Below, piece after piece: positions 1 to 28,952 of a DNA stretch of 40,393 nucleotides (its first letter is position 1; every line of letters begins with the position of its first letter). Position numbers and translations under genes: made by a program. The DNA is from a virus (Duplodnaviria > Caudoviricetes), in IMG/VR virus record IMGVR_UViG_3300048856_000120, positions 1 through 40,393 of that record. One strand, written 5' to 3'. The notes beneath the pieces were generated by a model. That model ran no database searches. It was not told where the DNA came from and saw nothing but the letters and a program-made list of their open reading frames with translations.

Positions 1-137
1 GCCCTAATACCCTTCGCGTCATTAAGCGGAAAGTCATCATTACCGGGCCACTTTCCGTCAATTGGAATGCCGAGCGCAAAGATGCACTATTTCAAAATCA
101 GCAATTTTTCGAGGCACTTTTAGCAAAGTCCAAGCTT

Positions 138-797
138 CTATTGAGCGGCAGCCCTCCTATCCCTTTCAATGCGCTCGAGCCGATCAAGCACCTGCATGTT
201 GAGATCCCGTTGTCCGAAGAACCCGGACTGTGTCTGCTTGATCTCGTCAATCTGACGTTGCAGGTTCTGGCTGGCTGCCATGCGGGCTTGCCGATCGGCC
301 GCGAGCTGCGCATCGTATGAGACCCATACCCGTTCGTGCTCCTTCCGGGGCACCTGATCCTCTTGTAGCGATTTGACCGACGCTTCCATGCGCGCGCGGT
401 CTTCGGTCCCTCTTGCCTGTCGCCAGTCCATCTCTTCGCGTGTGACCATGCGTTCAGACAGGGTCAGCACGGAGGATTTCAGATCAGTCGTGGCGGTATT
501 GATCGGCCAGTAAGCCAGACCGCCAAGGAGCGTGCAGAAGGTCAGTGCCACACCCAGAGCCTGCCATTGCGGCTTGTTGCGCTCGGCGATGGTGGTCGAC
601 AAAGCTGACAAGGAACTGCGCGTCTCATTGGCAAGGCCGCTGAGTGCCGTTTCCATCTGCTTAAAGCCGGAGCGCATTTCCGATTCAAGATCGGTCTGCC
701 GTCGTCCCAGATTGGTGACGCGTTCGCCGAGCTGCGCCTGCATCGCGTCCTGGTAGTGCCGGGAAGCATCATTACCATTGTTCATATCATCCACCAT
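138..797 (-). CDS. Lysis-region membrane protein (coiled coil plus one TM segment)
   Basis: 219 aa, AAGGA RBS, hydrophobic WQALGVALTFCTLLGGLAYW between coiled-coil stretches, directly after the spanins. Confidence 0.75.
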   Translation of the reverse strand: MVDDMNNGNDASRHYQDAMQAQLGERVTNLGRRQTDLESEMRSGFKQMETALSGLANETRSSLSALSTTIAERNKPQWQALGVALTFCTLLGGLAYWPINTATTDLKSSVLTLSERMVTREEMDWRQARGTEDRARMEASVKSLQEDQVPRKEHERVWVSYDAQLAADRQARMAASQNLQRQIDEIKQTQSGFFGQRDLNMQVLDRLERIERDRRAAAQ

Positions 798-813
798 TGA
801 GGTTCCTTGCCCG

Positions 814-1113
814 CTATTGGATCGTCTTGCTGAGATTGTCGTAGAAGCCAGCGCAACGGTCCGTGCGGCTGTTCTGTCGGTCGAGGGCTAGCCTTTCCCG
901 CTTGAGGACTGATCGCACTTCCGAACCAACGACAAGCGCTGCATGAGCTTCCTTGGCCCGGCAATCCTCCGGATAGGCCGGAAGGGTGACGCGCGCCTGA
1001 GCCGTGCCTGTCTGGGTAGCGGCAGTCTTCAATTGCTTATCGAGACTCGAACATCCGGATATCATCAGCATTGAGATCGCACCTGCGACCAGCAGCCCGT
1101 AAGAGTTTTTCAT
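814..1113 (-). CDS. Rz1-like outer-membrane lipoprotein (o-spanin)
   Basis: Start MKNSYGLLVAGAISMLMISG-C (lipobox). Overlaps the 3' end of the i-spanin in another frame; Pro- and Cys-containing C-terminus. Confidence 0.75.
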   Translation of the reverse strand: MKNSYGLLVAGAISMLMISGCSSLDKQLKTAATQTGTAQARVTLPAYPEDCRAKEAHAALVVGSEVRSVLKRERLALDRQNSRTDRCAGFYDNLSKTIQ

Positions 1114-1471
1114 AGTCTCGAATCCTTGTTTCGGTGTCGGCTGCCGTCTGCTCGTCTCGAGCGCGATCGTTCTTGGCGATTTCCTGATAGCTGGAGATGA
1201 CGATCTGTCCGGCGTTGACCTGGCGTTGCAGCTCGGTTGCCTTGGCTTCAGCCGCCGTCGCTCGCGCCTCTGCCACATATCCTTCCCGTGCCGCTGCGGC
1301 AGCCTTCGCCCTCTCCGTCGGCACTCGACCGACGATCAGTTCGCGAACAACCGGGATGCGATCGGCAAACGGAATGTCGCGCAGAACGGGCACGCCTTCG
1401 TAGTAGGCAAGCATCATAAGGAAGATGCAGAGCGGAGCGCCGAGCGCGCGTAGAACCACGAGGAGGGTCAT
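1037..1471 (-). CDS. Rz-like inner-membrane spanin (i-spanin)
   Basis: N-terminal TM, Ala-rich coiled coil, C-terminal Cys; follows the endolysin with a 4-nt overlap. Confidence 0.75.
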   Translation of the reverse strand: MTLLVVLRALGAPLCIFLMMLAYYEGVPVLRDIPFADRIPVVRELIVGRVPTERAKAAAAAREGYVAEARATAAEAKATELQRQVNAGQIVISSYQEIAKNDRARDEQTAADTETRIRDYEKLLRAAGRRCDLNADDIRMFESR

Positions 1472-1947
1472 TTCAGCCCCTCAAGGCAAATCGCCCTTTC
1501 ATCGGATCGGCGGAGGACCAAACCACGCACATTCTTCTTTGCGCCGGCGTTGACGTAGAGCATCAGCGCATTGCATGCGCCGCGAAGATCCCCTGCGTTC
1601 GCCAGGCGCGCCATGCTTGATCGGCAGAAAGCCCCTACTCCGATGTTGTAGGTTCCGGAGAGAAAGGCGAGATACGATTTGTCGGGAATGGCATCCGGGT
1701 TTTTCAGGCATTTGCGCATTCCCGCCTCGTGGTCAACCAGGCTATCAACGAGCATCGAATCGCACTGGCCCTTGGTGAACTTCATCCCCTTGTGCATGCC
1801 TTTGGTCTCGCCATAGCAGCCGGTCCACACCCCAATGATGTCTGGATAGCTGTAGAGCCTGAGGCCTTCCTTGCCGCCGACATAACCGACCGCGACCGCA
1901 CCAAGAGCTGTGACGCCAACGAGGGCGTTGCGTATTCTACTTTTCAT
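1468..1947 (-). CDS. GH24 phage lysozyme, probable SAR endolysin
   Basis: EGLRLYSYPDIIGVWTGCYGET catalytic E/D/T motif, YNIGVGAF, GLVLRR; weakly hydrophobic Gly/Ala N-terminal anchor. Start taken at MKSR (1947). Confidence 0.92.
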   Translation of the reverse strand: MKSRIRNALVGVTALGAVAVGYVGGKEGLRLYSYPDIIGVWTGCYGETKGMHKGMKFTKGQCDSMLVDSLVDHEAGMRKCLKNPDAIPDKSYLAFLSGTYNIGVGAFCRSSMARLANAGDLRGACNALMLYVNAGAKKNVRGLVLRRSDERAICLEGLK

Positions 1948-2158
1948 CTGAGATGCCTTTCTGGGCGACAAGCCGCGCAACGAAGGCGAAGCCGACCGTG
2001 AAAAAGGTCAGCAAGGCGAACAGGCGCGGCGGGATGGGAAGGATGCCGTCAAGCAGCGGCAGGACGACTTCTGCACCGGACAAAAGACCGGCAAGCAGCA
2101 TCAAGCGGATGCTCCACGCATAGCGAAGCACCGCGCGCCAGTTACGGACGGGTTTCAT
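1937..2158 (-). CDS. Holin (two TM segments)
   Basis: 73 aa, NWRAVLRYAWSIRL then two hydrophobic segments, immediately upstream of the lysozyme. Confidence 0.8.
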   Translation of the reverse strand: MKPVRNWRAVLRYAWSIRLMLLAGLLSGAEVVLPLLDGILPIPPRLFALLTFFTVGFAFVARLVAQKGISDEK

Positions 2159-2199
2159 TTGTGATTTCCTTGTTCGGGGGGTTCGGGAGTATTTTAGAT

Positions 2200-2281
2200 G
2201 GGCTGAGGGTTCTCTCCCGTCAGCAGAGGCCCGGTTTATCGGTAATCGAGGGGGGAGCTGATAGATCGGGCCTTGCTTCTT
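2200..2281 (+). ncRNA. Candidate anti-SD sRNA copy 1 (suhB/alpha-r8-like architecture)
   Basis: Hairpin GCTGA..TCAGC enclosing TTCTCTCCC, then a long stem 2226-2242/2258-2274 and a pyrimidine tail. Confidence 0.5.
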
Positions 2282-2292
2282 AGCCGAGCATC

Positions 2293-2317
2293 GGAACGTT
2301 AAGCCCGTGTTGCAGTT
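2293..2317 (+). promoter_or_regulatory. EcfG/RpoE2 (general stress sigma) promoter
   Basis: GGAAC-N17-GTT about 6 nt upstream of sRNA copy 2. Confidence 0.6.
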
Positions 2318-2323
2318 TATCGC

Positions 2324-2393
2324 GGGTCGGGGTTTACCCTCTCCGACAGAGGCTCGTCTAAGCGCGCACCACCGATCTAGATGGGCCTCATTT
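2324..2393 (+). ncRNA. Candidate anti-SD sRNA copy 2
   Basis: Hairpin GTCGG..CCGAC carrying CCCTCTCC, then stem GAGGCTCGTCTA/TAGATGGGCCTC plus ATTT; same layout as copy 1. Confidence 0.55.
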
Positions 2394-2410
2394 AGAGCAA
2401 GGAGCCCGAT

Positions 2411-3076
2411 CTATCGGTAATTGCGGTCCGGTAGGTCGGGCTTTCCGTTAAAGCCGAGGCCATCTAGCCTTATTGTCCAGAGCTTGTTGCCTGCGATTGG
2501 CGATCGTTCCATGGTAAATACCTCGGGACGAGACTCGAAGTAGCTTTCTAGCTGCTGGAACCTGTTCCTTTGTCCACTGATGAATGGAGCAAACTGCAGC
2601 CTGACCTGACGCAACAGCTCTGAAGCTTCTCTAGACGAAGCGAACATCCGGTAGATTTCGAATGTCGATTGAGGTTTCAGTAGCGGATCCAAGTTTTTCC
2701 ACATTCCAACGAATTGGTTGACCAACGCCAGCTTTGGATCTGGACGCCTCGGACTTTTCGGCGGGGACAAGGCGAGCGCTAACCTTTGCGCGGCGTCCAC
2801 GATCTCGACGTAACGGTCAGTATCCTTGTCAATAACCTTGCCATTTACAGTGACAGCACCCGTCGTGATTGTAACGGGAAAGCGAACCGACCCATCAATT
2901 AGAAGCAGTACGTGCGGCGATTCTCCCATTTCACCAGCAGATACAATTAAAGAACACGTGTGCTCTGCCGGGTCCGGACATGATTCGCGCCATCGGATTG
3001 CTTTCGCCACCGATTGTAGGAATGCTCGAACCGCAAGGATGTCTCTATCGCGATAGACAGGATTAAATGTCCACAT
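2411..3076 (-). CDS. Hypothetical moron protein
   Basis: 221-aa ORF, lower GC, divergent from the porin; no recognisable motif. Confidence 0.6.
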   Translation of the reverse strand: MWTFNPVYRDRDILAVRAFLQSVAKAIRWRESCPDPAEHTCSLIVSAGEMGESPHVLLLIDGSVRFPVTITTGAVTVNGKVIDKDTDRYVEIVDAAQRLALALSPPKSPRRPDPKLALVNQFVGMWKNLDPLLKPQSTFEIYRMFASSREASELLRQVRLQFAPFISGQRNRFQQLESYFESRPEVFTMERSPIAGNKLWTIRLDGLGFNGKPDLPDRNYR

Positions 3077-3319
3077 TGTGTTGAGAAATGCCTTATTTTG
3101 CGTGTTCTAAAGGAGGCTTCCGGAAGACGAAAGTTACTAGTTCCTTAATGATTTCAACCTGTTGTAGCTAATGAATGGTTAATACTGGGTAGTTTCGTGA
3201 TAAAATGGCAACACCAAGGCGGCAAGCGTGGCAACAAAGCCACTTGGTGATTGCCGTGGTCGATAAAATTGGATTAAACAGTATTGGTCAATATGACTGA
3301 GACATTGGAGAGATCAACA

Positions 3320-4411
3320 ATGAACATTAAGAGCCTTCTTATCGGCTCCGCTGCAGCCCTGGTTGCAGTCTCGGGGGCACGTGCTGCAGACGCAGTAGTT
3401 GTTGCAGAACCAGAGCCAGTTGAATACGTTCGCGTTTGCGACGCATACGGCGCTGGCTTCTTTTACATTCCAGGAACTGAAACCTGCCTGAAGATCAGCG
3501 GCTATGTCCGTTATGATGCTGCTGGTGGCGACAACGTTTACACAGGCGGCAACGTCGGTGCAGACGGTGAAGAAACCTGGTACAAGCGCACTCGTGCAGA
3601 AGTTCGTTTCGACGCTCGTTCGGAAACCGAACTCGGCACTCTGCGTTCCTACATCCAGGGCCGTTTCCAGTTCACGAACGGCGATGACAATGGTGGTTCG
3701 CTGCCGCAGGCATGGATCGAACTCGGCGGCTTCCGCATCGGTGTTGCTGACGAACTCTTCGGTTCGTGGACGAACTATGCTGGCAACATCATCAACGACG
3801 ATGTTATCAACTACCAGTCCGGCACAACCAACCAGGTCAGCTACACCTTCACTGGCGGCAATGGTTTCTCCGCAATGATCGGTGCTGAACAGGGCCAGGA
3901 CGGTTTCGGTACCTTCGGCGACGATTATGTTATCGAAGATTACATGCCACACGTTCTTGCTGGTGCGAAGTTTGAACAGGGCTGGGGTGGTATCTCCGGT
4001 GTTGTTGGCTACGACTCCAACATTGAAGAGTTCGCTGGCAAGCTGCGTTTGGACGTAAAGGTAACGGACACGATCTCGTTGTTCGCAATGGGCGGATATC
4101 AGTCCGGCTATGACGAAGACCTGGTTGACCGTAACTGGTTCGGCGCTTGGGAAGGCGATTGGGCAGCTTGGGCAGGTTTCTCTGCTAAGCTCACCGAGAA
4201 GGCCACTCTTAACGGTCAGGGCGCATACGAGTCCGAAGGCACCTATGCTCTCGCGCTTAACGTAGCTTACGAACTGGTTCCTGGTTTCGTTATCACGCCA
4301 GAAATCAACTACACCAAGTTCGATGGCGCTCGTGCTGATCAGGCTGATTTCCTCAGCGGTGGCGATGACGACGCATTCGGCGGTATCATCCGCTTCCAGC
4401 GTAACTTCTAA
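3320..4411 (+). CDS. ropA: RopA/Omp2-family outer-membrane porin (Porin_2)
   Basis: MNIKSLLIGSAAALVAVSGARA|ADA..EPEPVEYVRVCDAYGAGFFYIPGTETCLKISGYVRYD signature, C-terminal RFQRNF, GGAGAG RBS. Confidence 0.95.
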   Translation: MNIKSLLIGSAAALVAVSGARAADAVVVAEPEPVEYVRVCDAYGAGFFYIPGTETCLKISGYVRYDAAGGDNVYTGGNVGADGEETWYKRTRAEVRFDARSETELGTLRSYIQGRFQFTNGDDNGGSLPQAWIELGGFRIGVADELFGSWTNYAGNIINDDVINYQSGTTNQVSYTFTGGNGFSAMIGAEQGQDGFGTFGDDYVIEDYMPHVLAGAKFEQGWGGISGVVGYDSNIEEFAGKLRLDVKVTDTISLFAMGGYQSGYDEDLVDRNWFGAWEGDWAAWAGFSAKLTEKATLNGQGAYESEGTYALALNVAYELVPGFVITPEINYTKFDGARADQADFLSGGDDDAFGGIIRFQRNF

Positions 4412-4436
4412 TCCTTTACTGGATTGGTGTTGAAAG

Positions 4437-4466
4437 TCCGGGGGCTAACGCTCCCGGATTTTTTTT
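4437..4466 (+). terminator. Rho-independent terminator of the porin gene
   Basis: TCCGGGGG-ctaacg-CTCCCGGA followed by T8. Confidence 0.85.
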
Positions 4467-4607
4467 GACTAATCTCTCATTTCGAGTAATGTGCTCAGTG
4501 TCCAAGGCTTTGTAGAAGGACTGCAAGGCTTTGTATGGTGCGATTCTCCAGTCACATCATATTTGATCGCATAAGCGGTGGGCTACCCGGCTCACCGCTT
4601 ATGTTCT

Positions 4608-5057
4608 TTAGAACTCCGCGGCTGCAATCCAAAGCTGATCGATCTGTTCGGACGTCATTCCCTGCATGGTTCCGAACAGATGCACCCACTCATCATCGCG
4701 CCTGAAGGTATTGGCCATCAATGCCATGCGAGCGGGGAACTGTTTTTCCGCTGGAAGTGCCTCGACAAATGCTTCGAAGGCAGCAGGCAACACGCCGGTA
4801 CCTAGATACGCCAAAGCTTCCGCCTGTGTGATGAACCCCATGATGGCGAGTTGCTGGAAGCATTGCCGATCAGATATCTCATAGGGAACTGGCGGCGGTG
4901 GAGGAGTATAGGGCTGGACTTCATCAGGCCACCCTTCCCATTCCTCCAAGCGCTGCCGATCGGCGTTTGCCATGTCGTCGGGGACGTACTTTGTGATCTC
5001 GTCTTCGACAACTTCGAATGTCCTGGCCTCTGTCATTCTTACAGATTCAATTGCCAT
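4608..5057 (-). CDS. Tail fibre assembly/chaperone-like protein
   Basis: Directly after the tail fibre; PYTPPPPP linker and C-terminal EQIDQLWIAAA typical of such proteins. Confidence 0.65.
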   Translation of the reverse strand: MAIESVRMTEARTFEVVEDEITKYVPDDMANADRQRLEEWEGWPDEVQPYTPPPPPVPYEISDRQCFQQLAIMGFITQAEALAYLGTGVLPAAFEAFVEALPAEKQFPARMALMANTFRRDDEWVHLFGTMQGMTSEQIDQLWIAAAEF

Positions 5058-5060
5058 TCT

Positions 5061-7088
5061 TTATAACCTCGAATTCGCTGTGCAGATTGATGAGAAGGTG
5101 CCTGATGTAGTGGTGCCAGTTGACGCTCGGGCTTCCACTGCATTTGTTAATGCCGCGCCACCGGCATTGAGCGCACTTCCGGGAGTTGTAGCAAATCCAC
5201 TAGTACCACCCACATTTGTAAGTGTGAGTGAAGGTGTTGCCCTCATCTGAACCGGAAACTGGAAATTCATATAGTATGACGCTCCCGCCGTAACCGACGC
5301 ACTGAAGATATTATAGGTTTGGTTCCAATACCTCTGACAGTCTTCAAGGTCCGTGCGGTAATCTGTCTTTTCGAAGGGTCGAGCCGCGGTAGCACCATCG
5401 GCATTGATATACATGTCGAAATCGTAAAGATAAAACGTTCCGGATGCACCCATTCCATTAGTGTTGGCGGAGGTTCCGTAAGCGCCGCCGCTCCATCCAG
5501 CTACGCCTTGGAGGTTTGTTCCTAGAGCAAAGCAGAACGACACTTCCATTCCAAGTCCATTGGTTGTGTCCCAAACTGTCGCAGCTGTGTCGCCGGGAAC
5601 AAAGATAGCCTGTCGTGTCGGCGTATTGCCTTGCGGTGCAGTGATGGTAAAGTTCGCGACGTAAGAACGCGTTCCTGCGCCATTCCTAAGTGCTATCGAA
5701 TACGTCCCTGCCGGTCCCGTAAAACCAAACGCCACCACTATCGGACGGGCTGCCGCCGTACCCCACATAAAGTCCGCAATTCGATAGCCTTCAATTCTTG
5801 TTCTGGCGATCCAGTATTCACCCGCAGCGAGTGAAGTGTCGGGCGTAGCGCAGGAGAAACGAAGTCGATTAGATGAACCATCAGGTGTAGGGGCGTTATT
5901 CATCAATTGTGAGGCAAAGGTCCCGGTTGAGGAACCCCAAACCGAATAGAACTGATCTGCAACATAGTAGTTCACAAGGTTCGAAGCCGTGAAGCCATTT
6001 TCCTGACTGATATTGCACGACGGATTGACGAAACGATTGCGCCTCGGGCCATTGCGGAAGGAGTCGACCAACGCAACCGAAATACCCGAATCCTTGAGGG
6101 ATTTACCCGTGGCCCCGTTGAACAATGCAAGGTTATTATCGACCGCAGAAGCAGGTCCGCTGACATCGCCATCGCCTTTGGCTGCAATCAACTGCCATTG
6201 AGTGTTAACGGTGGTGGGCAGCGCTGGGGGAGCGTTGCCGGTCGTGGACATGAGCGCGATCCAGGACGAGTTGTTGTAGAGCACGACATCGTCTTTGACG
6301 TAGGCAGTCGCACCCGAATACGCACCACGGAACACAAAGCCGCTACCCGCCGCTGAGAGCAGGAACCATTGCGTGTTTGATGTCGTCGGCAGGGTTGGCG
6401 GTGCGTTGCCTGTCGTGTTGACACGTGCAACCCATGACGAACCGTTCTGAAGAACGATATTACCGACAACATACGCCGTCAGTGGATTGTACGGTCCTGA
6501 CTGTACGACCGTTCCACTAGGACCAGTCAGATAGGCAGGCGTAGACCAGTCGCCAGACGTACTAGATTTCTTGAAGTAAATTGCAGACCTGCCGTCACCA
6601 ACATCATTGACCAAGACAGAGAAGCCAATCGGCTCGCCATCATAAGCGGCGCGCTCGGCTAGTGTCTCGACCTTGGCATCGGTCTGGATGCCCTCGATAA
6701 GTTCATTCTTCGGAATGAGCGTTAGCGCACCAGTACCCGTAAAGATCGGGATCATGTCCAATGCGCCGGCAAGTGCGGCGAAGGCTTCCAGATTGCCGTT
6801 GCCGAGCTCGACAATCAGGTCGCGCACAGAGCCCGTGTATCGCGAACCATCCGACTGGAACCGCATGCGGTATGGCGCAGCGACAAGTGCCGCCCCCGTC
6901 CATGGCTCAACGAGTTCGATAGTGTCATTGTCGACAACCTCGGCGATGATGGCGCTAAGGTTTTGGACCTTTAACTCATCGCCAGCCTGCAGTGTAGACG
7001 ACGCCCAAAAGGTATCAACGCCGGTGATTGTGGTACCGCCCTCGGCAAGCGATATGGTGCCGACATCGTAGTCTGGTTTGACGGCCAT
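5061..7088 (-). CDS. Tail fibre / receptor-binding protein
   Basis: 675 aa, N-terminal YDVGTISL..GTTITGVDT anchor, two CBM-like repeats, DLEDCQRYW C-terminal module. Confidence 0.85.
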   Translation of the reverse strand: MAVKPDYDVGTISLAEGGTTITGVDTFWASSTLQAGDELKVQNLSAIIAEVVDNDTIELVEPWTGAALVAAPYRMRFQSDGSRYTGSVRDLIVELGNGNLEAFAALAGALDMIPIFTGTGALTLIPKNELIEGIQTDAKVETLAERAAYDGEPIGFSVLVNDVGDGRSAIYFKKSSTSGDWSTPAYLTGPSGTVVQSGPYNPLTAYVVGNIVLQNGSSWVARVNTTGNAPPTLPTTSNTQWFLLSAAGSGFVFRGAYSGATAYVKDDVVLYNNSSWIALMSTTGNAPPALPTTVNTQWQLIAAKGDGDVSGPASAVDNNLALFNGATGKSLKDSGISVALVDSFRNGPRRNRFVNPSCNISQENGFTASNLVNYYVADQFYSVWGSSTGTFASQLMNNAPTPDGSSNRLRFSCATPDTSLAAGEYWIARTRIEGYRIADFMWGTAAARPIVVAFGFTGPAGTYSIALRNGAGTRSYVANFTITAPQGNTPTRQAIFVPGDTAATVWDTTNGLGMEVSFCFALGTNLQGVAGWSGGAYGTSANTNGMGASGTFYLYDFDMYINADGATAARPFEKTDYRTDLEDCQRYWNQTYNIFSASVTAGASYYMNFQFPVQMRATPSLTLTNVGGTSGFATTPGSALNAGGAALTNAVEARASTGTTTSGTFSSICTANSRL

Positions 7089-7089
7089 G

Positions 7090-7263
7090 TTATGCGGGCT
7101 CCTCGGTCGGATCAGTTGGCTTCAGTTTCACAAGCTCTTCGCGCACTTCGTTCAAAGCTTCGTTCAGAAGTTTCACCTGTTCGGCTTCAACCCGGCGCAT
7201 CGCCTGGATGCCAAGAACACGCTGGCGATAGAACTCGTTGAGCGCCATCGCTTCTTCGGCCAT
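7090..7263 (-). CDS. Small coiled-coil tail-associated protein (57 aa, not in ORF track)
   Basis: MAEEAMALNEFYRQRVLGIQAMRRVEAEQVKLLNEALNEVREELVKLKPTDPTEEPA; stop lies 1 nt before the tail fibre ATG. Confidence 0.55.
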   Translation of the reverse strand: MAEEAMALNEFYRQRVLGIQAMRRVEAEQVKLLNEALNEVREELVKLKPTDPTEEPA

Positions 7264-7339
7264 ATCGGCAATCGTGATTTCATGGGTTCTCCTTCCCGCA
7301 GGAGCGGGCTTACTGTGTTCTGTTTTCAGAAAAGTGGCG

Positions 7340-10300
7340 TTAGCGTTTCCACCAAAGAGTGGTAAGCGTTCCGGTTGGTGTGCCGGAAACGTTCACAACT
7401 CCGGAAATCGACCCAAGTATGCATTGGAAGGTATTGTTTCCTACAACGTTTTGCCCGAAGGCGAAGCCGGAGTCGTTGATCGCTTCGGTATCGCCATCGC
7501 CAATGTTGTAGTTCTTGCTGAAAACAGTGACGCCCGTCGTAGTATTGATTATTCGAGCTTGAATCGTAGCGCCGTTTGGGGCCGTGTACGTACCGGCATA
7601 TTGAAATTGCAACATCGATCGGTTGGCGACCGGCAAGTTGATCGTGCGCGAAAGAGGATTCGGTTGCCCGCTCACCGTATCACTGCTTGTCACGGCATCA
7701 ATGCCAAGGTTCGACGTGCCAACGATCAAGGAACCGATCACAGCCGAACTGATATCCACCGCACCGAGTGTCGCCGACAGGGCCGATAGGGTGGTGACCC
7801 TGAGTTCGTCTGCGAACAGCACACCACCTGTGATTACGAACGGACGACGCTTATTGGGACCGTTGACGACATAGAATGAGTCCGCCGTGATCCCAACTTC
7901 GCTGAGTCCCCCTGCTATTGCACTGAGGAACAATGCGGCTTGGCTTGTAGGTCCGACCCCTGTTGCCGAGACGCTGATGCCAATAGTAGACAGTGCGCCT
8001 GCTTGAGTGGCGACTTGCTCCGACCGAAACAGACCATTGGCTGAAAATTTGCCGATAGAAACGGTGTTCGCATTGACGGTGTTCGTTACTGCCGTGAGTT
8101 CCCCGTCGATAATGCCGATCGTTACGGAATTTGTCTCCGTGATCTCGCCTATCGCAGCAAGACCGCTGACCGGGTCGTTAACTTGAGCGGACAGCTGTGA
8201 GACATGCACGACAAGAGCAGAGGTTTCGGTCGCTACGACCTTGAGCTCTTCCGTGAACCTCGCACTCGTGCTTCCAACCTCGGCAAGAAGTTCACGCTTG
8301 TCGAAAACGCTTTGTGCTCCGGTTTCGGCTGCGAGATGGTCCGCTTGCTCAAGAACGTCCCGTGCGTAGTGCGTGGCCTCTTCGATCCATTTCAGCTTCG
8401 CGTCAAGACGCTGCAGAACGCCGTCGACCATGCCGGGGAGATAGATGTCGTCGGCACCGAGCAGAACGTTCGGCGTGGTGACATCGATCAGACCAGACCA
8501 GGTGAAATTCTTGCCGATGTTGGAGACGAAAATGCCACGAACCAGATAATCCGTATTCGGCGCAAAGACGGCGACAAGCTTGGTCGAATACTGCTCGTCA
8601 AGCGGTGCGTCATAGGGCATCTCGCCGTCGAACCAGAGATTGCCGGTATCCTTCTGATAGACCTCTACGCGGATCCTGTCGACGCCATCCTGATCACCGG
8701 CATAGAAAACCTCGATCGTCTGTCGGCGCGGACCACTGCCGTCATCCAGAGTGGCCGGAAGTGCCTGCCATCCAAACATCGGGTGAGATGGATTGACGAT
8801 CGGGCCAACCGGACCGACGGAAACCGGCTGTTGCTCAGCCGTCGACCAGTCGTAATCGGATGGATCGATCTCCTTGAGCACCACAAGCTGATTAAAGCTG
8901 CGCTCACCGTCGATGCGGACCACAAGAAATTTCTTGTTCACATATCCATTACGGACAGATGACCAGGAGACAACGTCATTCGGCTCGAGCGTCCACGCAT
9001 CCGGTGGCAGATAGAACGAATGGACCCGGAAGCGCCTATCTTCCTCGATTAGCAGTTTCATCAGCCGCTGCACCTGGACAGGGAAAGGAACAGCTTCGAA
9101 GGTTACGCCCGAAGCGAGCCGACGGGTACCGTCCGCTGATTCCAGATCGGTCGAATAGCGCGCCGGCGCGTCCTTGGTCGCCCACTTCTCCAGTGGCTCC
9201 GGATAGGTGGCCTCAATCCCGTTATAGGTGGCGTCGAGACCCGGGAATGGCGTGTAGTTCTGGCCCTTGGTGACGAGGATATCATTGTCGCTGAAGGAAT
9301 AGACAGCGGCGCCCGGAGCACCAACCAATATCTTGAAGATACCGCCGACCTCGGCAATGCGGCCGTTGCAAGCCTTCTTCAATTTATCAATGACGTCGAG
9401 CGGCACCATATCGCAGTTGATTTCTGTACCGCAGCGGAACTGCTTTTCCGAACCGCCACCGGCAAGCGGGATTAGCCGGTCGCATTCATTGGCGGCAACC
9501 ATCCAATTGGAAGCAGGCAGGCGATACGCCGGTAGGTTCTGACCGCCATAGATCCATTCGGTACCGTAATAGACGCCGCGGATGATGTTGTAGATCAGAA
9601 TGACAGGATTGTCGGATGGCTCCCATGTTGCCGGGTTGTCCCACCGATGCGTACCTGACCCGCCATTGGTCGAATCCTTGCGGATATCGTACCAGCCGCT
9701 GACCGGCGGTTCACACAGATAAGTCGGCTGATTGGGGAATAAGTCCTGATCGAGTCTGGCGGTGGCTATGAAATACGGGCAGCCGCGCCCGATCATGGTT
9801 GACTTGTAAGGACGATCCGGGTCCGCGCTGAATTTGGTCAGCAGGAAGGCATCAGCCGTGGTTTGTGTGCCAGGGTAGTACTTGAACCAGAGATAGTCCT
9901 TGCCGTTCTTGCGGAACTCCTGAACCGGATAGCCCTGCTCTACGGGAGCTTCCCCCCAAAGGACAGTGACTTTCTGATCATCGACCCAGAACGCAGGAAC
10001 ACCAGGCGCAGGGATATTGCCGACCTCGATGACATCGGTCAGGTAGGCATTCGGTGTCTTGCCGTCCTTGCCCCATGCCCCGATATACTTCCGCTTGCCG
10101 GATGTCGCGGTTGTTCCGGCCGTGAACGACATCGGCTTGTCGTCGCCCATCTGCACCGTGAGCTTGACGCCCGCAGTTTGCGTCGGCTGCTGTTCGCCAA
10201 AGAGCGCCTGGGAAAGCAGGGAGACGCCGTAAGCTATACCGGCGCCAATCAGGTAGGTAACAACAGCCCCTGCCGTCGTGGCGGCAAATGCCGCGCCAAA

Positions 10301-27838: not shown

Positions 27839-27920
27839 TGGTTGCGGTAGGTCGGATTCGAACCGACGATCTTCTGGTTTGCTTATGAGCCCGACGAGAT
27901 GACCACTTCTCCACGCCGCA
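27839..27920 (-). tRNA. tRNA-fMet(CAT)-like gene, aberrant or pseudo
   Basis: TGCGGCGTGGAGAAGTGGTCATCTCGTCGGGCTCATAA[GCAAA]CCAGAAGATCGTCGGTTCGAATCCGACCTACCGCAACCA: intact D and T arms and CCA, but a 5-nt insertion after the anticodon loop. Confidence 0.75.
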
Positions 27921-28382: not shown

Positions 28383-28952
28383 CTACGCAGGCTGCAGTTG
28401 TCTCGCATCAAACTCGACTGGAGTCATCCGGCCGAACAATTGCATCAAAGCCTTGATTTTGCCTGACTTGGTGACCTCTTCGACAATCCCGCAATGATGG
28501 GTGAAGGGGTTTCCCATGTCTACAACGATGACGCTTTGGCCTGACGGAAACTGACGAGCCGTGTTTTCCTTCTCCGTTGCCAGTTCTTCCTTCCGGTGGA
28601 TGCGAGCGGCTCTAGTATCGTCAAAGTCCATGTCGATTTCAGCCACGTAGATATCTTGGACGCTCTTGCCAGAAATGCGGATCGGACGGCCATCAACGCC
28701 GAGAATGCCTTCTACGCCATCGCAATTCCGGACCTGATAGAAATCCGGATTGCCGACGAACAGATACCGAGGCATTAGAGCCTCTTCCTTCACCACGTAG
28801 ACCTTCGTGCGCCGATGCTGAACTTCGACCCTGCGACGAGGGTAATACGTGTCGTAGCCGGCCTTGCGAATATTATCGAAAGCCTTCTCTTCGCCCTTCA
28901 CGGTAGTCCGCACCACATACCAGTGCTTGTCTTTGTCGATGCCGGATTTCAT
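28383..28952 (-). CDS. NusG/RfaH-family late antiterminator (Q position)
   Basis: WYVVRT..EEKA..LMPRYLFV NGN domain; C-terminal KOW domain ending LFGRMTPVEF. Confidence 0.88.
   Translation of the reverse strand: MKSGIDKDKHWYVVRTTVKGEEKAFDNIRKAGYDTYYPRRRVEVQHRRTKVYVVKEEALMPRYLFVGNPDFYQVRNCDGVEGILGVDGRPIRISGKSVQDIYVAEIDMDFDDTRAARIHRKEELATEKENTARQFPSGQSVIVVDMGNPFTHHCGIVEEVTKSGKIKALMQLFGRMTPVEFDARQLQPA

Follow-up and report, generated by a model that had tools for sequence, protein, structure and literature searches.

Why should a temperate phage carry, between its tail fibre and its lysis genes, a porin of the RopA type together with a row of RNA-like hairpins, and do these elements work as one? 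The question is raised by IMG/VR record IMGVR_UViG_3300048856_000120, a Caudoviricetes genome that was analysed over its entire 40,393 bp and is called the window here; positions refer to it. Its gene order fits a temperate tailed phage, with genes for a repressor, recombination, a transcription antiterminator, terminase, portal, tail, holin and endolysin, and, judged by its homologues, its host is likely Phyllobacterium. The original prediction saw a receptor swap, in which small RNAs (sRNAs) silence a host porin through its ribosome-binding site (RBS) and the phage porin replaces it. The locus is best read as a stack of lysogenic-conversion morons, and we favour, at a probability of about 55%, the view that this late-region slot of a prophage, likely from Phyllobacterium, holds two kinds of moron cargo that move separately, a host-like porin cassette and a set of predicted sRNA genes, which likely work next to each other and not as a single switch.

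An exchangeable slot between tail and lysis genes

The late genes of the window lie on the minus strand. The slot is bounded on the left by the holin gene (1937-2158, minus strand; phrog_1356 holin, E = 5.8e-11; DUF7940) and on the right by a gene following the tail fibre (4608-5057, minus strand), which is likely involved in fibre assembly according to the list of open reading frames (ORFs), a PHROG search and locus comparison; the tail fibre itself (5061-7088, minus strand) was confirmed in the ORF and profile check. Between tail fibre and holin lie, as originally described, the porin gene and a divergent ORF (2411-3076, minus strand). The insert interrupts conserved genes and is missing from the sister phage L029 and from 30 other loci, as expected of a moron. 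L029 is 92% identical to the window over 156-2358 and has kept the RNAs, with porin and ORF absent. Elsewhere the content of the slot has been exchanged for an acyltransferase (L030, L171) or a methyltransferase (L181). In detail, the tail-holin cargo of related prophages comprises an acyltransferase-SGNH fusion at L030:4643-6643, the acyltransferase at L171:8527-9525 and the methyltransferase at L181:9011-9910, and the same slot holds other probable surface-modifying genes in L088, L091 and L034.

The gene arrangement is not an assembly artefact, since it recurs in environmental DNA. Run X1, possibly the source sample, yields exact contigs over 2329-3448 and 4399-5363, which bridge unit 2 of the RNAs, ORF and porin as well as porin and tail, and in run X3 a diverged copy, with 24/636 and 8/545 differences, reaches from the hairpins across the ORF into the start of the porin. 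In the RNA run X2, from one study, an identical contig of 1131 nt covers 3299-4429; it starts 21 nt ahead of the porin ATG and stops just short of the terminator, and these ends fit a single-gene transcript, although such a contig shows neither strand nor level and may stem from DNA. No X2 contig covers the tail, the lysis genes or unit 1 within 1-9000, a gap that by itself proves nothing. Runs X5, X6, X10 and X11 held other organisms' porins or scraps.

A porin with mosaic ancestry

The porin gene (3320-4411, plus strand; ATG at 3320, stop at 4411) encodes a Porin_2 (RopA/Omp2) protein of 363 aa, with a Pfam match of E = 4.8e-104 and 349 bits against a cut-off of 22. The predicted model is a barrel of 16 long strands (predicted local distance difference test score, pLDDT, 86.5); the sequence ends in F and, judged by eye, starts with a signal peptide-like N terminus. 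Antisense to the late genes, it is equipped with its own RBS, GGAGAG (3307-3312, plus strand), in a leader common to one host paralogue class, whose 18-nt motif occurs exactly in 9 of 31 genus genomes. It also has its own intrinsic terminator (4436-4466, plus strand), a 10-bp stem at 4436-4459 followed by eight T (-18.5 kcal/mol), which was found by direct reading and folding and missed by a simple terminator scan. The description of an intact porin with its own terminator was therefore accurate.

All 31 genus genomes contain porin matches, 3-15 per genome; of the 218 matches 68 were neither listed nor checked for prophage context, and the unpublished genome G022 is counted only in tallies of the 31. 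The closest paralogues are 83-90% identical to the window porin, the nearest being a copy in G031 (90%). In a tree of 38 proteins the window porin sits on a short branch (0.051), its placement being without firm support, and along the gene 60-nt windows are 97-100% identical to host paralogues that differ from stretch to stretch. This identity, the short branch and the mosaic show that the porin derives from the host; loop segments may have been exchanged in either direction, perhaps with benefit. Past the terminator, about 100 nt of host-like DNA (4506-4611) match the stretch downstream of chromosomal porin genes of the leader-sharing paralogue class, with 71-74% identity to six host porin loci and to L157. 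No prophage-internal porin was found in 12 fetched stretches around porins or RNA hits.

Two side observations concern the history of the gene. The 17 nt after the porin stop (4412-4428) match the paralogue class with the GGAGGTCAGAA leader, whereas leader and terminator resemble the other class, and the X1 and X3 contigs track the window up to 4428 and then run into a host-type terminator; this junction suggests that phage and host porin genes recombined. In L042, L050 and L054 the leader-sharing host paralogue adjoins a tRNA-like sequence (by eye) and a flavin adenine dinucleotide (FAD) oxidoreductase gene, and the tRNA site could be the place of porin capture.

The divergent ORF encodes an unknown protein of 221 aa, head-to-head with the porin and with seven homologues of 50-68% identity; it found no match in Pfam, PHROG, Atlas or a PDB fold search (model pLDDT 63.6). 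It extends 19 aa beyond the usual homologue end, into an orphan hairpin of the RNA row. ORF matches occur in 3 of the 31 genus genomes, two of them full-length. The same head-to-head pair is found in G014, G021 and plasmid NZ_CP104967.1, the G014 and plasmid copies being 92% identical to each other. No window-like phage protein was detected in 19 kb of flank around the G014 and G021 cassettes (the G014 contig ends within the porin), nor a window-like phage gene near the plasmid pair, and ORF and porin thus form a cassette.

Porin morons in other viral contigs

Porin alignment recovered relatives in 29 viral contigs, compared with one in an earlier single-protein scan. Eight of them carry a late-region porin gene on the strand opposite to the late genes; it lies between tail fibre and endolysin in L220 and L226, as in the window, and just past the lysis genes in L221, L224, L225, L227, L228 and L229. 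These late-region porins are 73-94% identical among the seven compared (all except L225) and mostly 32-36% identical to the window porin; the four looked up all belong to clusters named Agrobacterium porin. This distance and the cluster names point to a separate capture in Agrobacterium-type prophages. In seven contigs (L214-L217, L219, L222, L230) an integrase is the immediate neighbour of a Porin_2 gene; these porins were treated as probable host flank, and they suggest that prophages often insert next to porin genes. The porin-bearing contigs L218, L223, L231 and L240-L242 were left out of both groups. Eight low-GC viral contigs (L232-L239; 45-46% GC where measured) encode Porin_2-like proteins of about 450 aa, for example at L235:7923-9290, in a context unlike that of prophage morons.

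The porin alone might serve to defend the receptor: by diluting or mixing with the host receptor porin, or by donating loops to it, it would lower the adsorption of porin-binding phages, and the RNAs would be bystanders. The comparison with host paralogues that had been proposed does place the differences mainly in predicted loops, which account for 32/45, 37/53 and 19/38 differences in three paralogue comparisons while making up 129 of 341 residues (loop limits set by the analyst from the predicted barrel model). Such enrichment, the mosaic tracts and the recurrence of porin morons in eight other viral contigs all fit a role in defence. So does the literature: ropA1 and ropA2 recombined in a phage-resistant Agrobacterium clone, and RopA1 is cited as the receptor for more than 10 S. 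meliloti phages (PMC10132094). However, a loop bias is expected between any porin paralogues, the receptor data concern S. meliloti phages and not Phyllobacterium phages, and the host retains its own paralogues (3-15 matches per genome), so that an extra copy need not remove the receptor. We consider defence by the porin alone possible but rather unlikely. If the porin is one of two independent cargos, it would likely be made besides the several host paralogues and give the outer membrane one more channel with variant loops, and it may swap loop segments with them by recombination, as the mosaic would suggest.

A row of predicted small RNAs

The region 2170-2490 folds with z = -4.15 on the plus strand and -2.46 on the minus strand. 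Two tandem sRNA-like units had been recognised here; both are indeed structured and have promoter-like motifs, but they belong to two different types and are accompanied by the orphan hairpin. Unit 1, a type I RNA (2202-2283, plus strand) identified by covariation and by a match to model R1, whose training set includes it, combines a 5-bp hairpin, with a CU-rich loop at 2207-2219 (CTCTCC at 2212), and a 17-bp hairpin with a G-rich loop at 2243-2257. Six nt before it stands a -10-like hexamer (2190-2195, plus strand), a predicted promoter with no clear -35. A [TC]AnnnT hexamer lies 6-7 nt upstream in 21/32 type I units (35 copies, three without locatable stem being left out) against 4% in the background. 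In 10 type I copies 94.4% of cells are paired, seven pairs changed two-sidedly and 0/500 shuffles were as good, a control that kinship of the sequences alone could beat. The changes are often G-U/A-U or U-G/C-G; as these fit the plus strand only, the RNA would be made from that strand.

Unit 2, a type II RNA (2325-2393, plus strand), forms two hairpins, its CTCTCC (2339) being the 3' side of the first; 7/20 type II pairs show two-sided changes. Upstream lies a promoter motif of the type recognised by EcfG, the general stress sigma factor, GGAAC-N17-GTT (2293-2317, plus strand), as in PMC6599016. GGAAC-N17-(G/A)TT precedes 10/11 type II copies, compared with 21/51,442 background positions (0.04%), and is present in 29/35 hits of model R3, which itself includes the promoter. 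The orphan (2401-2446, plus strand) is the long hairpin of a second type I unit that lacks the promoter and first hairpin seen in the sister phage. Several copies outside the window have, by eye, a CtrA-box-like motif (consensus from PMC9437464). With predicted lengths of 65-100 nt, taken from predicted ends, the units look like independently promoted small RNAs.

The family combines a conserved 3' scaffold with a variable 5' region. Model R1 has matches in 25/31 genus genomes at E<=0.1, often as arrays in prophages, remnants and accessory islands; the type II model has no hit in 13 host stretches of 20 kb. In a family-wide search of 150 other genomes, with only 31 and 26 candidates per genome scored by the type I and type II models, the former found none and the latter weak hits lacking the promoter motif in two. 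Wherever late genes are recognisable the orientable units are antisense to them, and units occupy moron sites convergent with late genes in the window, L029, L040, L155, L178, L179, L180 and others. The units match nothing in Rfam 15 at the gathering score or E<=10, nor do 13 homologous loci at E<=5, and an annotated phage collection had no match for hairpins or porin.

Several other leads were discarded. A short-pattern scan gave 27 viral loci, only L019 being homologous, and a metagenome pattern scan six loci judged to be unrelated palindromes. Readings of the hairpins as ribozyme, attC, put-like or CRISPR elements were dropped on motif inspection and the Rfam result. A kissing loop (permutation p=0.003 over 28 units) is not a family feature, since the signal came from three related copies. 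As a separate observation, co-oriented arrays with several hairpin module types, up to about 1.2 kb long (L190:7600-8800, L183:7440-8300, L037:7950-8830, L199-L213), sit in Phyllobacterium prophage remnants or islands with stress-type genes (SRAP, DUF982, DUF892, ligase, Hsp20) and show a recurrent CTTCTTTTTCAC loop motif and CtrA-box-like promoters.

What might the RNAs do? They are predicted to act in trans under different inputs, unit 2 through EcfG and unit 1 through a sigma70-like promoter; that porin and RNAs are expressed in the lysogen, that the RNAs act in trans and that any of this is of benefit is what we infer. The G-rich loop of unit 1, common to two related phages, replaces the usual conserved family loop and is complementary to both seeds of the host AbcR (ar15; 12 matches in three genomes). 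This pairing, chosen post hoc and 6-8 bp long, reaches -12.3 to -12.6 kcal/mol; 0/150 random host 100-mers were as strong, the closest control being -12.4, and four other family members reached 0 to -1.7 kcal/mol. AbcR has a GcvB-like role. In E. coli the anti-sRNA AgvB mimics a GcvB target (PMC4104026), and unit 1 may, as a tentative proposal, likewise act as a sponge of AbcR, its best computed partner. Otherwise its CU-rich loop would be a general seed against Shine-Dalgarno sequences, with no preference for porins.

Do porin and RNAs form one system?

The receptor swap was built on CTCTCC in both units, complementary to RBSs of the GGAGAG type. The two copies, where about 0.07 would be expected per 270 nt at window frequency, and the RBS are present, unit 1 has a 7-bp match to GGAGAGA leaders, C-rich loops are common in the RNA family and the E. 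coli sRNA IpeX offers a precedent (PMC12197685). What does not hold is the generality of the motif: CTCTCC occurs in 2/35 type I and 4/35 type II hits, it is absent from the L220 and L226 RNAs, and the sister phage reads TTCCTCCC instead. In unit 2, moreover, four of its six bases are paired in the isolated fold, with an opening cost of 8.9 kcal/mol versus 4.7 in unit 1. Target prediction, which had been suggested for both RNAs, ranked porin leaders no better than background (27 porin and 108 background leaders; mean -5.4 versus -5.2 for unit 1 and -1.6 versus -3.9 for unit 2); the best porin leader lies at the 12th percentile and the phage porin's own leader at the 47th for unit 1. The RBS matched by unit 1 is found on the phage porin itself and in a single class of host paralogues, which is not the GGAGGTCAGAA-leader class. 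For a swap this is the wrong way round, and the phage porin would be silenced too.

The co-residence of porin and RNA is real. It is seen in the window, in L220 and L226, where a type II RNA with EcfG motif lies between endolysin and porin (both contigs are training members of the model), and in the G014, G021 and plasmid cassettes. The linkage expected for related prophages is nevertheless partial. The porin is absent from 31/31 other tail/lysis or array loci, at least seven of which span fibre gene to holin; in L228 and L229, outside the training set, the type II RNA occupies the tail-endolysin slot and the porin lies beyond the lysis genes; and four of the eight late-porin contigs have no type II hit at E<=0.01. 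The RNA follows the slot and not the porin, as it stays there in L228 and L229 and escapes detection in four contigs with porin. A single insertion slot used by both would explain co-residence without regulation. Since both recur in relatives, mostly apart, two separate cargos are likelier than one receptor-swap system. The RNAs being far commoner without a porin, the motif not conserved and porin leaders not preferred, their assignment as anti-Shine-Dalgarno partners of the porin is not supported, and we regard the swap as improbable.

Several points weigh against our preferred reading of two independent cargos. Downstream of the ORF, and on the same strand as the porin, an array-type RNA module accompanies each of the four full-length ORF-porin cassettes seen (window, G014, G021, NZ_CP104967.1), and a type II RNA precedes each of the three porins located between tail and lysis genes (window, L220, L226). 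Unit 1, in which four of the six CTCTCC bases are unpaired, can pair over 7 bp with the GGAGAGA RBS. Target scores came from a home-made duplex-plus-accessibility scorer applied to proxy genomes, not to the host's own. Copies of the RNA family are related to each other, and their counts are not independent events. The X2 contigs hold no RNA evidence for unit 1, and X2 pieces over 2337-2574 have a depth of 2.3-2.4 and no strand. As for the sponge, the G-rich loop could pair with unit 1's own CU-rich loop instead (-12.3), and the AbcR idea was picked after the G-rich loop had been seen, for a pairing of only 6-8 bp.

The hairpins might also be no free RNAs at all but DNA or terminator elements (cassette boundaries, recombination sites or insulators) that aid moron exchange. 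They stand at moron junctions and, in accessory islands, mostly keep one orientation over tens of kb, their U-tails are often weak, and G-T pairs are tolerated in single-stranded DNA hairpins. Against this stand the constant spacing between the sigma-factor motifs and the first hairpin downstream of them, the conserved loop of the long hairpin and, by eye, the lack of a conserved integron-type core site, which make such a role doubtful. Neutral hitch-hiking of a chance-captured, decaying host fragment would agree with the lost usual end of the ORF and the truncated third RNA unit; it is very improbable, as the porin is intact and has RBS and terminator, a second soil run holds a diverged copy and a porin was captured separately in Agrobacterium-type prophages.

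Other features of the window

Further afield, a PHROG 'transcription antiterminator' match (28383-28952, minus strand) precedes the late operon, where lambda has its Q gene. A weak tRNA match (27843-27919, minus strand; 35.4 bits) has an enlarged anticodon loop. At the left end an open frame (3-320, plus strand), convergent with the lysis genes and without Pfam match, is possibly a further moron or a host gene.

Comparison with known systems

Coliphage PA-2 carries its Lc porin near the lysis genes. Like PA-2 Lc and DLP12 NmpC with IpeX (PMC12197685), the window is a temperate phage with a host-porin homologue as late-region moron and small RNAs nearby, although its porin belongs to a different family, Porin_2. 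The proposed parallel with IpeX breaks down in the RNAs. IpeX is processed from the porin transcript and is reported not to rely solely on complementarity (PMC12197685), whereas the window RNAs lie more than 900 nt upstream of the porin, have their own promoter motifs, occur without porin and show no predicted preference for porin mRNA; they end at or before 2446, with an opposite-strand ORF between them and the porin. A closer likeness exists with AgvB and AsxR of lambdoid prophages in enterohaemorrhagic E. coli (PMC4104026): these, too, are short RNA genes that sit at moron sites and converge with late transcription, and they have a conserved 3' part, a variable 5' part and related, non-identical copies across prophages; as with AgvB, one window RNA may mimic the target of a host sRNA seed. 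AgvB and AsxR measure 51-60 nt (PMC4104026), compared with the predicted 65-100 nt and two or three hairpins of the window family, which differs further in its tandem arrays, its several promoter types and a putative mimic placed in a 3' hairpin loop; no sequence homology was seen. The porin is a true, mosaic member of the RopA1/RopA2 and Omp2 paralogues (PF02530), set apart by its place in a prophage late region. Alpha-rhizobial sRNA families of Rfam (ar7, ar9, ar14, ar15/AbcR, ar35 and ar45) and cuckoo RNAs are likewise multi-hairpin RNAs with C-rich loops; unlike them, the window family has no Rfam match and keeps to prophages and accessory islands.

Porin morons and moron-site sRNAs are already known in E. 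coli phages (PMC4104026, PMC12197685; a 2026 bioRxiv preprint on Pas sRNAs). In agreement with the original prediction, searches of the open-access literature (including PMC6117902) turned up no account of Porin_2 morons or of these RNAs from prophages of rhizobia; some copies could be listed in subscription papers or in supplements such as sRNA catalogues. New here are the eight other viral contigs with late-region porin morons and the complementarity between the unit 1 loop and AbcR. A bolder and rather speculative synthesis, which we hold unlikely as a whole, would be that rhizobial prophages captured a major phage-receptor porin at least twice as a reservoir of loop variants, and that the slot also holds a modular sRNA library with swappable host-controlled promoters (sigma70-like, CtrA-box-like, EcfG), one member sponging AbcR; alphaproteobacteria would then have evolved, independently, a counterpart of both Lc porin conversion and AgvB.

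Since RopA-type porins are reported receptors for many rhizobial phages, prophages that carry such porins and exchange segments with them could influence how plant-associated bacteria resist phages and how permeable their membranes are. The RNA family, undescribed in Rfam and equipped with testable promoters, would rank among the first prophage sRNA systems in Rhizobiales, and it is a candidate for connecting a prophage with the general stress response of its host and with nutrient uptake controlled by AbcR.

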